Below are positions 5,176-10,207 of a DNA stretch of 64,000 nt, in pieces. The notes below the pieces were generated by a model. That model was given only the letters and a program-made list of their open reading frames with translations, did not search any database and was not told where the DNA came from. Within the stretch, counting starts at the first letter, position 1, and each line of letters begins with the position of its first letter. Both the position numbers and the translations under genes were made by a program. This stretch comes from a virus: positions 112,633 through 176,632 of IMG/VR virus record IMGVR_UViG_3300025435_001056, one strand, 5' to 3'.

Positions 5176-5199
5176 CAAATGCAATTTACACTGTATAAT
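5172..5199 (+). promoter_or_regulatory. sigma70-type promoter
   Basis: TTGACA-N16-TATAAT, 6 nt before ATG 5206. Confidence 0.65.
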
Positions 5200-5205
5200 A
5201 ACAGT

Positions 5206-5718
5206 ATGGATCCTAAAGATTATACCACATTTGAAAAAATATTAGACAGTTCGATCGCAACTGATTGTATCACTATTCCTAATGGATACGGAGCCGAAAC
5301 GGTTACAGTAAACAATGCCATTGACACAATCACTTTGTCTGAGTTTGACTTCAATTTACAAAACACCATGTCTACTTATAGTAATGTTACTGTCACTAGC
5401 CCATACATTGTAAGTGGTGGCACTGGTCTTTATACTACAGGTACAACTGCTTCTCCGTGGGCTACTACACCCAGTTCAAAGATCCAACTGAACGGCGAAG
5501 ACGCCGATATCGAAGTTAATGGATTAAGTCTAATGGATGCGATACAAAAGATTGAAGAACGCTTAAACATACTACATCCAAATACTGAATTAGAAGCGGA
5601 ATGGGCAGAACTACGCGAATTGGGCGAGCAATACCGCAAACTTGAGCAACACATCAAGGACAAACAGGCTACATGGGACCGTTTGAAGGCCATGCCACCA
5701 CCGGTGACTGATCAATGA
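5206..5718 (+). CDS. Hypothetical protein with C-terminal coiled coil
   Basis: Thr/Ser-rich N-terminal half, IEERLNILHPN..LEAEWAELRELGEQY coil; start placed after the promoter. Confidence 0.65.
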   Translation: MDPKDYTTFEKILDSSIATDCITIPNGYGAETVTVNNAIDTITLSEFDFNLQNTMSTYSNVTVTSPYIVSGGTGLYTTGTTASPWATTPSSKIQLNGEDADIEVNGLSLMDAIQKIEERLNILHPNTELEAEWAELRELGEQYRKLEQHIKDKQATWDRLKAMPPPVTDQ

Positions 5719-7106
5719 CAACCTGGTCTGATTTTTACGATCAAATTAGAGATTCTTCCTGGCCCGACTGCACAACTGAAGATCAGTTTGCCTTGTTGCC
5801 TGAACACATACAACAAGAATGCCAAGAAAAATTTGGCTATGTGCCTGGTGCATTTTCCAAGATCTCCAAATTAAAAAATCAAGTTTTCCCAATAAAAACA
5901 GCCACGGCCTGCCAGCTGAAATGGAATTGGAGTACCGTATTTCTTACTACAGAGGAAACCGCCAGTTGCCATAGGACCAATCATCACAAGTTTGATACCG
6001 ATCTATTTGATTTTCATAATACTCCATCAAAATTAGATGATCGAAATCGCATGTTGGCTGGCAAATGGCCTCAGGAAGGATGTACATATTGTCACAACAT
6101 TGAACAAGCAGGGGGGCAGAGTGATCGTATGACCAACCTGAACTTTTCGGGTATACATGCTCCGCCTGAATTAGACAATAATCCTCAAGCCATACAAGTT
6201 ACCCCTAGAATTTTAGAAGTGTATTTTGATAATACCTGTAATTTGAAATGTCTCTACTGTGGTCCACATTTTAGCAGCCTATGGGATGCCGAAAATCGAC
6301 AGTTTGGACAACCGGCCTTTATCAAAAGCAAAAATATAGACAAAAACAAACAACAAATTTTTGCCTGGTTACGAGTCAACGGACAGTATTTGACCAATTT
6401 CAATATACTGGGCGGGGAACCCTTGTACCAGAGCGAATTGGAAGAGTGTTTAGATCTGTTTGAACAGTATCCTGCCTCAGAACTCAAGTTGCAAATTTTT
6501 ACTAATCTTAATACCAAACTTGATCATTTAAAAAAAATAGTTTCCAGAGTCAAACAGTTAGTCAATCAAAATAGTATTAGAGAATTTGAAGTTACAGCCA
6601 GCTTAGACTGCTGGGGTGCGGCACAGGAGTACGTTCGTTATCCTTTGAATTTGGAATCTTGGCAGAAAAATTTTGAATATCTACTGTCAGAATCCTGGAT
6701 CAATTTGATTATAGGCAGTACCGTGACACCGTTAACTATAAAAACTCTGCCAGATTTATTGGAAAGGATCAATCAATGGAATCAAGTTCGACCAGTTCAT
6801 CATTATCAAAACAGTGTTAATGGACCCAGTTACATGTTTATTGATATGTTTGGTGATATTTTTCAGTCAGATTTTGCTTGTGCATTGGAACTCAAACCCG
6901 ATGCTACCCCAGAACAACAGGCCAGCAAAAATTATCTATTGGGCATTGCCAAGCAATCGGTTGCCGGCGCTCCAAACTTGCCTGAAATAAAAAAACTGTT
7001 TGATTTTTTGAATGAAATAGATCGTCGTCGAAAGACCAGCTGGCCCAAAGTATTTCCTTGGTTAGTTTTGGAATTTAGCAAACATGGATTTAATATACCT
7101 ACTTAA
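5715..7106 (+). CDS. Radical SAM protein with N-terminal twitch-like Fe-S domain
   Basis: CNLKCLYC (CxxxCxxC), GGEP motif, SLD; extra Cys motif C..SCH..GCTYC upstream. Confidence 0.85.
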   Translation: MTTWSDFYDQIRDSSWPDCTTEDQFALLPEHIQQECQEKFGYVPGAFSKISKLKNQVFPIKTATACQLKWNWSTVFLTTEETASCHRTNHHKFDTDLFDFHNTPSKLDDRNRMLAGKWPQEGCTYCHNIEQAGGQSDRMTNLNFSGIHAPPELDNNPQAIQVTPRILEVYFDNTCNLKCLYCGPHFSSLWDAENRQFGQPAFIKSKNIDKNKQQIFAWLRVNGQYLTNFNILGGEPLYQSELEECLDLFEQYPASELKLQIFTNLNTKLDHLKKIVSRVKQLVNQNSIREFEVTASLDCWGAAQEYVRYPLNLESWQKNFEYLLSESWINLIIGSTVTPLTIKTLPDLLERINQWNQVRPVHHYQNSVNGPSYMFIDMFGDIFQSDFACALELKPDATPEQQASKNYLLGIAKQSVAGAPNLPEIKKLFDFLNEIDRRRKTSWPKVFPWLVLEFSKHGFNIPT

Positions 7107-7201
7107 TGGCAAAAAGTATCAAAAATTGTAGATTTTAAACCAGACAAGTTATATAATACTAAGTATTTTAGAGAGTAGAAAAAACAACCAGGCTAACATT
7201 G

Positions 7202-7449
7202 CGTTTAGCGGAGGATTACAAATCAAGATCTACTCCACAACGGACGGGTCAGTGCCGCAAAGCTGACCGGTATTAAAGAGGACTTCGGAAATCCTCTTCA
7301 TTGACAAATGGTATGGGCAAACTGGAAACAAAGGTTTGCTTAGAGAGTATGGCACTGAGGCCCGAGGTCTTGATCTGTCTAAATATCTACCCACCGCCAT
7401 TGTCTGTGCGCCCATTCCGGGCATCCGCTGAAACGGTCCAGTTGAACCG
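7202..7449 (+). ncRNA. Candidate large structured RNA / 5' leader of the cell wall hydrolase gene
   Basis: At least seven complementary segment pairs, including long-range and crossing ones (see findings). Confidence 0.55.
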
Positions 7450-7462
7450 AAGGAGGACGACA

Positions 7463-8149
7463 ATGAAGCGTATCTTATTATCGTTATTACTAGTAGTCAG
7501 CAGTTTGGCAACAGCAGCAGAAGTACGGCAGGATCAGGTAGTGTTGGCAGACAACACGACTTTCAGCGGTCAGATGGCGGAGCATGCCGCTAGTTTCGTT
7601 CGAAGCACTGCCAATACCTTAACAGCACCATTCTTGTCACAGCAGGATGTTGAGTGCTTGGCCCGTAACATATTTTACGAAGCCGGATCGGAACCCTTAG
7701 AGGGCAAGGTGGCCGTGGGCATGGTCACAATCAATAGAACCCAGGACGATCGATACCCACAAGATATCTGCGGAGTAGTAAAACAACGCACAGTGATCAC
7801 AGTACCACAACAGGTCACTCAAGTCAAGACAGTCAAAGAAGGTTGGCTACTACCACCCCGGCAGGTGGTGGAAACTCGAACTCAACGGGTAACTCGTGCC
7901 ATATATCAGTTTAGTTGGGTAGGACAACGCAATCTGCGCATACGCGAAGATGATCCGCGCTGGATCGAAAGCCGCGCTGTGGCCGAAGAACTGGCCCGCG
8001 GCGGCTACGAAACATGGCAAGAAAAGTATAGCGAAGCCATGAATTTCCATGCGGTGTATGTGAATCCGGGCTGGCGTTTAAAGCGCATTGGCCGGGTAGG
8101 AAATCACATATTTTATAAAGGAAACGCACCTGTTCAACAGGGTGGTTGA
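7463..8149 (+). CDS. SleB-like cell wall hydrolase (Hydrolase_2) with signal peptide
   Basis: CLARNIFYEAGSEPLEGKVAVGMVTINR, YPQDICGVVKQ, YQFSW, FHAVYVNPGW..VGNHIFY; AAGGAGG RBS before ATG 7463. Confidence 0.9.
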   Translation: MKRILLSLLLVVSSLATAAEVRQDQVVLADNTTFSGQMAEHAASFVRSTANTLTAPFLSQQDVECLARNIFYEAGSEPLEGKVAVGMVTINRTQDDRYPQDICGVVKQRTVITVPQQVTQVKTVKEGWLLPPRQVVETRTQRVTRAIYQFSWVGQRNLRIREDDPRWIESRAVAEELARGGYETWQEKYSEAMNFHAVYVNPGWRLKRIGRVGNHIFYKGNAPVQQGG

Positions 8150-8174
8150 CCAAAAACTCGCAAGGTGTTATAAT
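8146..8174 (+). promoter_or_regulatory. sigma70-type early promoter
   Basis: TTGACC-N17-TATAAT. Confidence 0.8.
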
Positions 8175-8618: not shown

Positions 8619-8837
8619 ATAGCAAAAGAAGAAGTAATCAAAATGGACGGGTTAATAGCCGAAGTGCTACCCAATACCCAGTTCCGTGTGGAAATTGAAG
8701 GATTTGAACGAGCTATCTTGGCTACTTTAAGTGGACGCATGCGGCAAAACAATATCAAAGTGCTAGCCGGTGATACGGTAGAAATGGAATTTAGCCCTTA
8801 CGACCTAACTCGCGGTCGTATTACCCGACGCCGATAA
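8619..8837 (+). CDS. infA: Translation initiation factor IF-1, probable ATA start codon
   Basis: (M)AKEEVIKMDGLIAEVLPNTQFRVE..LSGRMRQNNIKVLAGDTVEMEFSPYDLTRGRITRR; AAGGAG lies 8 nt before ATA 8619. Confidence 0.9.
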   Translation: MAKEEVIKMDGLIAEVLPNTQFRVEIEGFERAILATLSGRMRQNNIKVLAGDTVEMEFSPYDLTRGRITRRR

Positions 8838-8845: not shown

Positions 8846-9388
8846 ATGCGTGAAATAATTGACCTAGTAGAAGCTTCTACCCGACCAGCCAAGCTGGAAA
8901 CCACAACCTTGCCCTACACTCACAAGGCCTTGGAACCGGTTATGAGTGCAGATACCATTGAGTATCATTACGAACATTTGGCCAAGGGCTATGCAAAGAA
9001 ATACAATGCAGGCGAAGGCGACCCTGACTTTAATCGTGCTGGAAGTTTCCTGCACAACAAGTTCTTCCCACAGTTGCGTGAACCTCGCGGTGCCAATAGA
9101 CCCAAGGGTGCAGTATTGGAACTGATTGAAACCAAGTTCAAAACCTACGAAGACTTTAAAGCAGCAGTTAAAGAAGTGGCCATGAAGATCCAAGGAAGTG
9201 GTTGGATATATCTATCAACCGGTGGCGAAATCAAAACCATTCGCAATCATGCTGTTCGTACCGATATCTGTGTCTTGATTGACTGGTGGGAGCACTCGTG
9301 GAGTTTGGATTATCAATGGGACAAAGAGAAGTATTTGGATAACATCTGGAAGATTATCAACTGGGATGTTTGCAACGAACGGTTGTAG
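8846..9388 (+). CDS. sod: Fe/Mn superoxide dismutase
   Basis: LPYTHKALEPVMSADTIEYHY, FLHNKFF, IQGSGW, DWWEH metal-ligand motifs. Confidence 0.85.
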   Translation: MREIIDLVEASTRPAKLETTTLPYTHKALEPVMSADTIEYHYEHLAKGYAKKYNAGEGDPDFNRAGSFLHNKFFPQLREPRGANRPKGAVLELIETKFKTYEDFKAAVKEVAMKIQGSGWIYLSTGGEIKTIRNHAVRTDICVLIDWWEHSWSLDYQWDKEKYLDNIWKIINWDVCNERL

Positions 9389-9416: not shown

Positions 9417-9884
9417 ATGAGAACAACCAAAAAACACAGACGCATTTACGAAGATTATTATAATGTAAGATTGCCAAGCATTATTGAAATACATCATATT
9501 GATGGCAATCACGATAACAATGATATCACAAACTTAATGGCAGTTACTATCGAAGAGCACTTTGAAATTCATAGACAACAGGGCGATTACGCTGCGGCAT
9601 TTAGAATATCACAAAGAATGGAAGTTAGCAAAGAGGAAAAAAGTAGATTGGCATCCTTAGCCGCAACCAAAGCCAATGCAGAAGGAAAATGCGGGTTTAA
9701 ATTGGGTCATGCTTCGATCGCTGGAAAGGTAGGCGGCAAAAAAGGTGGCGCCTATGCTAAGGAAAACCGTACAGGAATATTTGCATTAACACCCGAACAG
9801 AATAAACAACGACATTTCAATTCTGTAGTAACCAAAATGATTAAAGCCGGCAAAGCAAGTGCTTGGCCAAGAGAGGAAATATGA
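9417..9884 (+). mobile_element. Free-standing HNH homing endonuclease
   Basis: HRRIYE..EIHHIDGNHDNNDITNL..EEHFEIH; own TAAATA at 9392; inserted between sod and erpA. Confidence 0.75.
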
Positions 9885-10207
9885 TTACAATTACAGATTC
9901 AGCAGTATCAAAACTCCAAGATATTCTGATAGAGGAAGCCAACCCTAATCTTAAACTTCGTGTGTTTGTACAAGGTGGTGGATGCAGTGGTATGCAATAT
10001 GGTTTTACTCTGGACGAAGAGCAGGCCGAAGATGACTGGGATCTGGATGTCAATGGTGTCCATGTGCTAGTTGACAGCATGAGTGGTGGGTATTTGCAAG
10101 GAGCCACCATAGACTATCGAGAAGATCAATACGGCAGCAGTTTCAGCATCAACAATCCCAACGCTCAAACCACCTGCGGTTGCGGTAGTAGCTTTAGCCC
10201 TTACTAA
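9881..10207 (+). CDS. erpA: A-type iron-sulfur cluster carrier (ErpA/IscA/HesB)
   Basis: [17 protein letters not shown] and [14 protein letters not shown]. Confidence 0.92.

Follow-up and report, generated by a model that had tools for sequence, protein, structure and literature searches.

The window analyzed here comprises the final 64,000 nucleotides of an IMG/VR virus record (IMGVR_UViG_3300025435_001056) that is 176.6 kb long and judged ~51% complete. Since a record of this length represents only about half of the genome, its source is a jumbo phage. Within the window, a gene for a SleB-type cell-wall hydrolase follows a radical-SAM gene that ends at 7106, leaving 356 non-coding bases (7107-7462) before the hydrolase start. 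An earlier note on this DNA had proposed a large non-coding RNA in the gap; the analysis agrees that the gap does not encode protein, and it finds a conserved folded RNA on the + strand. The features that frame the RNA are:

7463-8149, + strand: SleB-type cell-wall hydrolase gene (Pfam PF07486, SleB/Hydrolase_2, E = 5.9e-17)
7450-7456, + strand: Shine-Dalgarno (SD) sequence AAGGAGG, followed by the hydrolase ATG at 7463-7465 (read from the sequence)
7068-7096, + strand: weak sigma-70-like promoter, TTGGAA-17 nt-TAATAT, with the -10 at 7091-7096 (read from the sequence, below the scan threshold)
7104-7135, + strand: upstream box TTAATGGCAAAAAGTATCAAAAA..., sequence-conserved across relatives

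The product of 7463-8149 scored 62.6 bits against PF07486, above the curated cut-off of 27, and PHROG endolysin families also matched it. Its homologues in cultured phages (~30% identity) carry an endolysin annotation, and its N-terminus, judged by eye, resembles a cleavable Sec-type signal peptide. By sequence, the hydrolase is a probable endolysin.

Several observations concern the neighborhood. The radical-SAM gene (5715-7106) is missing at the corresponding site of the closest relative, L002 (2046-3001 compared), where a homologue of 5179-5718 directly precedes the leader; in the window, the presumed promoter of the leader sits within the 3' end of the inserted radical-SAM gene. Downstream, the region comprising 8643-8837, 8846-9388, and 9863-10207 encodes a homologue of translation initiation factor IF-1 (PF01176), an Fe/Mn superoxide dismutase (PF02777, PF00081), and, as judged by eye, an IscA/ErpA-like iron-sulfur carrier. 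Counted from the structured leader, the IF-1 gene lies two genes downstream, an order that L002 shares. A near-consensus sigma-70-like promoter at 8146-8174 (TTGACC-17-TATAAT with an upstream TG, 11/12 matches) overlaps the hydrolase stop codon and precedes a conserved gene of PHROG 27048, a family without known function.

A protein-guided search led to L002, whose hydrolase is 68% identical to that of the window and whose upstream region is 79% identical, with compensatory changes. Exact-pattern scans recovered the P4 hairpin (see below) in 29 virus contigs, a P4-independent pattern in 46, and a third pattern in at least 119 stretches of metagenome contigs. Deduplication left at least 119 distinct full-length elements, which form 69 clusters at 90% identity. 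Most of them belong to group A, as does the window; the others divide into groups B and C and several singletons.

With a covariance model we found exactly one significant copy (E < 1e-20) in the record of the window and one copy in each of five other records of 300-349 kb, three of which are at least 97% complete. The element is thus single-copy per complete ~340-kb phage genome. Wherever the downstream gene was readable, the element was tied to a SleB-type ORF: the ORF downstream of the 119 elements carried the SleB motif in 107 cases and a variant motif in 7, and was cut by a contig end in the remaining 5. Among 80 virus loci with the nearest SleB homologues, 7 carry the element and 73 do not, and in the latter the upstream regions are short and different. 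The leader is therefore not required for such an enzyme in general.

A search of bacterial and archaeal genomes (one per species, 185,579) returned one true copy, the other eight hits being due to chance. The true copy (L057; CAITCX010000170.1, 2370 bp) consists of a full leader and a SleB gene binned in an uncultured Dehalococcoidia MAG, and it is most likely a mis-binned phage fragment. No DNA match to the element was found in cultured phages, and the contig names suggest lake metagenomes as its source. Four further loci from other phage lineages (L192, L193, L197, and L200) have another motif ~100 nt before SleB, composed of GGTTATATAAACTTA, a short hairpin, and AAGGAGGAC; the GGTTATATAAACTTA/AAGGAGGAC motif is nearer to a T4-type late promoter (TATAAATA) than to the folded leader.

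Helices were proposed from alignments and tested on 41 group-A representatives that are mutually <91% identical. This comparison identifies the + strand leader at 7159-7449 as a conserved folded non-coding RNA, whose predicted parts are:

7159-7171, + strand: box CUAAGUAUUUUAG, the 5' edge of the folded RNA
7173-7179/7229-7235, + strand: helix H0, 3 pairs with changes on both sides
7192-7198/7202-7209, + strand: hairpin P1 with one bulge, 4 pairs with changes on both sides
7241-7243/7255-7257, + strand: pseudoknot PKb between CGG and CCG of the P3 loop (covariation)
7248-7253/7262-7267, + strand: hairpin P3 with conserved loop UGCCGCAAAG, 4 pairs with changes on both sides
7276-7282/7292-7298, + strand: hairpin P4, whose 9-nt loop contains an invariant UCGG; the universal core starts here
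7299-7306/7401-7408, + strand: long-range helix PL, which closes the central domain
7314-7322/7334-7342, + strand: hairpin P5 with conserved loop GGAAACAAAG
7343-7370, + strand: ultra-conserved joining strand ...AGUAUGGCA...GGCCCGAGGUCU (sequence conservation)
7283-7288/7362-7367, + strand: putative pseudoknot PKa between the P4 loop and CCGAGG of the joining strand (complementarity)
7371-7400, + strand: variable linker, 5-35 nt in relatives
7410-7413/7419-7422, + strand: hairpin P6, CG 26/UA 11/UG 4 and CG 39/UA 2, covarying across groups as well
7424-7449, + strand: conserved UCCG (7424-7427), then an H-type pseudoknot (covariation)
7427-7430/7439-7442, + strand: pseudoknot stem S1 (covariation)
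7434-7438/7445-7449, + strand: pseudoknot stem S2, 5/5 pairs covary

At the 5' edge, TAAGTATTT is invariant in 41/41 group-A representatives, and UAAGUA is retained in all groups. H0 encloses P1 and a conserved GGAGGAUUACA strand, and these together make up a peripheral 5' domain (7173-7235). This domain is missing or replaced in L010, L021, L069, L124, and L136 and in groups B and C; some members lack H0, P1, and P3, while groups B and C have other hairpins there. The 5' domain is thus exchangeable, while the core, from P4 to the SD, is universal. P3 with its loop pseudoknot is likewise assigned to the periphery. The short PKb pseudoknot is 100% paired, with compensatory change in 2/3 pairs (CG to GC and GC to AU).

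P4 opens the core. Its lack of variation within group A follows from the search pattern, which selected for it; between groups it covaries (GC 23/AU 19 and AU 21/CG 12/UA 7). The stability of a UNCG tetraloop was considered as the reason for its loop and rejected, as the variants AUCG, GUCG, and CUCG occur while UCGG is fixed. In PL, the pair 7300-7407 changes across groups (AU 16/GC 15/GU 10, 97% of cells paired) and shows no variation inside group A, and P5 has both-sided changes in 8/9 pairs within group A and in 9/9 across groups. The joining strand that follows is conserved in sequence: CCGAGGTCT was present in 29/29 loci recovered by a pattern that did not demand it.

Invariant CCGAGGUCU of the joining strand can pair with the invariant UCGG of the P4 loop. 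This UCGG/CCGA pairing is always complementary, but as only one-sided changes were seen we keep PKa as putative and unproven. The alternatives are a local hairpin (7358-62/7366-70) and a pairing of CGGA in the P4 loop with UCCG at 7424-27; for the latter, group C alters both sides (CGGC/GCCG), and mismatches were noted by eye in at least two other lineages. The UCGG loop, CCGAGGUCU, and UCCG thus have several mutually exclusive candidate partners that are indistinguishable in the alignments.

At the 3' end, S1 and S2 interleave and each shows compensatory change, and they are therefore predicted to form an H-type pseudoknot. The S1 pair 7428-7441 is CG in 51 and GC in 26 of 77 relatives with zero exceptions, and outliers have CCG/CGG, CGG/CCG, or CAG/CUG in this stem. 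The pseudoknot ends 2 nt before the GGAGG of the SD, a spacing that is fixed at 1-3 nt in relatives. Pairing of the 5' GGAGG strand or of the variable linker with other segments was inspected by eye and discarded for want of consistent compensation.

The statistical support for this fold is comparative. In group A, 95.5% of the cells in the proposed helices were paired, as compared to 31-41% after the 3' partners had been slid by 1-3 columns. Both-sided change occurred in 30/66 pairs, and 0/500 shuffles reached any of the five measures used. Across all groups, compensatory change was seen in 40/53 pairs and in all eight nested helices, in an alignment that was fitted to the model and leans towards it. 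On these alignments, the eight nested helices and two of the pseudoknots (S1/S2 and PKb) are backed by covariation. In contrast, folding energy did not go beyond chance: the minimum free energy of 7190-7465 on the + strand was -83.8 kcal/mol, compared to -77.1 +/- 4.9 for shuffled sequences (z = -1.37), and 19/200 shuffles folded as well as the native sequence. The evidence for structure therefore comes from comparison of sequences and not from energy. Invariant G.U pairs (7253-7262, 7427-7442, and 7284-7366), which would be A.C on the opposite strand, indicate that the RNA strand is the + strand.

These results bear on the earlier note, which had placed a large RNA at 7202-7449 and had staked it on covariation among homologous leaders and on a fold better than that of shuffled controls. 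The covariation was found, while the advantage in energy failed to appear. An RNA does exist at the position given, but it is larger (the folded part covers 7159-7449) and is partly folded otherwise. Six of the nine proposed pairings hold in whole or in part. Covariation supports 7247-52/7263-68 (P3), 7315-22/7334-41 (P5), 7410-13/7419-22 (P6), and 7434-37/7446-49 (S2), as does covariation between groups for 7276-82/7292-98 (P4). The sixth, 7303-11/7397-04, had been offered as a crossing pseudoknot; only its inner half stands, within the nested helix PL.

The other three pairings are unsupported. The closing stem, 7202-12/7424-35, is complementary in its right register (7206-12/7424-30) in 51/77 relatives, but in the other 26 a G.G clash arises between 7208 and 7428, and the covarying partner of 7428 is 7441, in S1. 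A perfect 8-bp helix, 7249-56/7351-58, had been seen as a competitor of the P3 hairpin; it conflicts with both P3 and PKb and shows zero compensatory change. In 7222-31/7365-74 only 6 bp are conserved, without covariation, and they overlap H0. The closing stem and the 8-bp helix are the pairings on which the idea of a conformational switch had rested. H0, P1, and both covarying pseudoknots are absent from the pairings listed then.

We next consider whether the leader could be a known RNA or a coding sequence. A cmscan of the whole window with Rfam 15 at gathering thresholds gave no match, and a permissive scan (E up to 10) of 6900-7700 gave two chance-level hits only (E ~9). Scans of 12 diverse relatives (E up to 1) found nothing on the leaders; in L033, positions 332-414, off the leader, weakly matched the isrK Hfq-binding sRNA (27.1 bits against a gathering threshold of 50, E = 0.041). 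No tRNA or tmRNA genes were found, no convincing hammerhead-like or T-box-like motif was seen in the leader by eye, and a limited full-text search of the literature did not turn up any description of the element. Phage Melnitz has a glutamine riboswitch, which was considered and is unrelated to the element. The lack of an Rfam match, the at least 119 homologues, and the compensatory pairs counted in group A all support the earlier proposal of a large structured RNA of no known family located 5' of a lytic enzyme.

An in-frame N-terminal extension of the hydrolase (7301-7462), which had been named as a coding alternative, is peculiar to the window. The median upstream open stretch is 10 codons in 119 leaders, 94 of which have fewer than 20 codons open in frame upstream of the hydrolase start; the extension is not conserved coding sequence, and a small ORF elsewhere in the leader was rejected as well. 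Length differences among relatives, both in the variable linker and in the P5 region, are not multiples of three. On the minus strand, the leader of L002 contains no ORF of 60 aa or more. Further upstream, the box at 7106-7138 is readable as a mini-frame, M-(V/A/T)-K-x-Y-Q-N. The frame ends at codon 9-11 in some relatives, mostly with TAG but with TAA in the window, and its stop is read through in others. Its AUG is not conserved, being ACG in several relatives, and the position of the stop varies. The mini-frame may be the remnant of a leader peptide or merely a conserved start-of-transcript sequence.

Transcription of the leader most plausibly begins upstream of the whole fold. In 71/120 distinct upstream regions of relatives, a near-consensus TTGACW-17-TATAAT promoter occurs at the place that corresponds to the weak promoter of the window, and in 64 of those 71 the -10 ends 65-69 nt before the UAAGUA box. 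This conserved position places the transcript start near 7103, probably giving a leader of ~360 nt. The box at 7104-7135 would then probably be the initial transcribed, unfolded part; the first ~55 nt of the leader are conserved in sequence, and no partner or run covarying with the fold was found for them. Inside the leader there is no conserved promoter-like motif. Two candidates had been named earlier, TATAAT at 7152 and TAAATA at 7380, and neither is conserved: the former is found in one subgroup only and the latter lies in the variable linker. The CTAAGTATTTT box was also considered as a general phage promoter and dismissed, as it is not enriched in the 176-kb record; CTAAGTAT occurs at 6 sites genome-wide against 5.4 expected and is therefore not a general promoter motif. 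No terminator-like site was found in the leader.

On balance we favor, with somewhat better than even confidence, the explanation that the leader is a cis-acting gate on translation of the endolysin, that it belongs to an undescribed RNA family, and that its trigger is a ligand or a protein. Four features point to translational control in cis: a spacing fixed at 1-3 nt, a partner gene that is always the same, the absence of a terminator, and the signal for export of the enzyme. As there is no terminator, control would be exerted at translation or mRNA stability and not by transcription attenuation, and the abundance of unpaired but invariant bases hints at the binding of a ligand or a protein. 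In the proposed mechanism, the core fold would be set by a small molecule or by a phage or host protein acting at the invariant loops and the joining strand. Depending on the core, the 3' pseudoknot and the UCC(G) beside it would or would not allow use of the ribosome-binding site. In this way, synthesis of the lysis enzyme, which is dangerous because it is exported, would be restrained or timed during translation.

How the ribosome-binding site might be closed is less easily stated. In a nested partition-function model the pairing probability of the SD was 0.60 for native leaders, compared to 0.62 after shuffling of the upstream sequence, and about half of the modeled pairing involved UCC(G) immediately 5' of S1. 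This nested thermodynamic model, in which native leaders did no better than shuffled controls, gives no support to simple SD sequestration. The UCC/GGA anti-SD pairing shows no covariation, and the candidate competing pairing 7206-12/7424-30, which would exclude P1 and S1, is not selected. By the geometry of H-type pseudoknots, the two ends of S1/S2 are located at opposite ends of the stack. With this geometry, UCC-GGA pairing and formation of the pseudoknot may exclude each other.

The trigger could be of two kinds. One is a metabolite or an ion, in which case the leader would be a riboswitch, a special case of the gate, with the core (P4, PL, P5, the joining strand, and P6) as aptamer and S1/S2 with UCCG as expression platform. 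A conserved covarying fold of the aptamer kind is indeed present: many invariant unpaired nucleotides lie amid covarying helices, there are two or three pseudoknots of which one abuts the SD, the core is fixed while the peripheral domain is dispensable or exchangeable, and the tie to one gene family is strict. However, the leader resembles no riboswitch in Rfam, a tie to one gene alone does not hint at a ligand, covariation backs no alternative pairing, and the leader is absent from bacterial genomes apart from one fragment among 185,579 species genomes. We therefore regard a strict riboswitch as possible but unlikely. The other kind of trigger is a phage- or host-encoded RNA-binding protein that uses the leader as operator for translational repression or activation. 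The conserved loops CUUCGGAAA, GGAAACAAAG, and UGCCGCAAAG and the invariant strand are typical protein-contact elements, and the one phage clade to which the leader is restricted could carry the cognate protein. Com of phage Mu, which opens the mom leader, is an example of a phage protein with such a role. T4 gp32 binds a pseudoknot in its own leader (PMC3014915). On the other hand, known phage operators are much smaller and simpler than the element, and no candidate protein was identified, the conserved neighbor of PHROG 27048 having no known function; a protein operator is accordingly a reading that we entertain only tentatively.

Two further explanations were weighed. The leader could be an independent RNA that happens to lie beside the gene, either trans-acting, self-cleaving or processing, or a non-switching 5' structure that stabilizes the mRNA. 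Large non-coding RNAs are known in phages, and the element is like them in size and complexity; its folding is also uncoupled from masking of the SD in the simple model. We nevertheless think this improbable, as the distance to the SD (1-3 nt), the orientation, and the gene partner are constant in 119 elements, no terminator separates the element from the gene, and it does not resemble any ribozyme family in Rfam. Least probable of all, in our view, is a passive role of the kind documented for T4 e, soc, 49, and I-TevI (PMC3014915), where structure blocks long early transcripts only and late transcripts that start inside it are translated. The gene controlled would be of the same kind, a lysis enzyme, but the leader has no conserved internal promoter motif, and the only conserved promoter position precedes the entire fold by 65-69 nt. 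Sequestration of the SD does not exceed chance, and a simple hairpin would do for such a role, in place of ten helices and pseudoknots with invariant loops.

The element is tied to one critical decision, the production of an exported cell-wall hydrolase by giant phages known only from uncultured material. Large RNAs with multiple pseudoknots and well over 100 natural variants are rare, and such classes have tended to yield new RNA biochemistry. It could be speculated that the leader is a riboswitch of a new class, or a ribozyme that depends on a ligand, with which a jumbo phage senses a metabolite of its own or of the host and so times synthesis of its exported endolysin, although we give this rather low credence. 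If it were a sensor, it would show that a dedicated RNA structure can determine when lysis occurs, and it would supply a new pair of an RNA and its ligand or protein; to our knowledge, no dedicated RNA sensor has previously been found to control phage lysis, and this would be the first. Even as a constitutive translational brake, the leader would be a well-defined family supported by covariation and fit for Rfam. The leader also marks one clade of ~340-kb jumbo phages, apparently from freshwater.

Among the closest known systems is the T4 lysozyme gene e, one of several T4 genes (e, soc, 49, and I-TevI) whose mRNAs have an inhibitory leader structure (Uzan and Miller 2010, PMC3014915; McPheeters et al. 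1986 as cited there). In both cases an RNA structure thought to restrain translation lies in the leader of a phage lysis-enzyme mRNA. In T4, however, one hairpin holds the SD or AUG and the late promoters lie inside, whereas the leader described here has a multi-domain, pseudoknotted fold of ~300 nt, no covarying helix includes the SD, and the conserved promoter position is upstream of the fold. The leader of gene 32 in T4 and T2 contains a pseudoknot 67 nt upstream of the start codon that nucleates binding along an unstructured A+U-rich stretch (PMC3014915). Our pseudoknot stops 2 nt short of the SD and makes up only the final module of a far more extensive fold; gene 32 encodes an autoregulating protein, while none is known for the present leader.

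Bacterial regulatory RNAs offer two further comparisons. In translational riboswitches such as preQ1-II and SAM-II, the pseudoknot includes or abuts the SD. Like our leader, they have a covarying pseudoknot by the SD and a conserved core in which unpaired bases are invariant, and they lack a terminator. In contrast, the present element is 3-5 times larger, leaves the SD outside the pseudoknot, is found only in phages, and has no match to them in sequence or model. The ydaO/c-di-AMP riboswitch is associated with cell-wall hydrolase genes in bacteria, and it too is a pseudoknotted leader upstream of genes for peptidoglycan hydrolases; its Rfam model, however, gave no hit even at E up to 10, its architecture is another, and the element described here is confined to phages.
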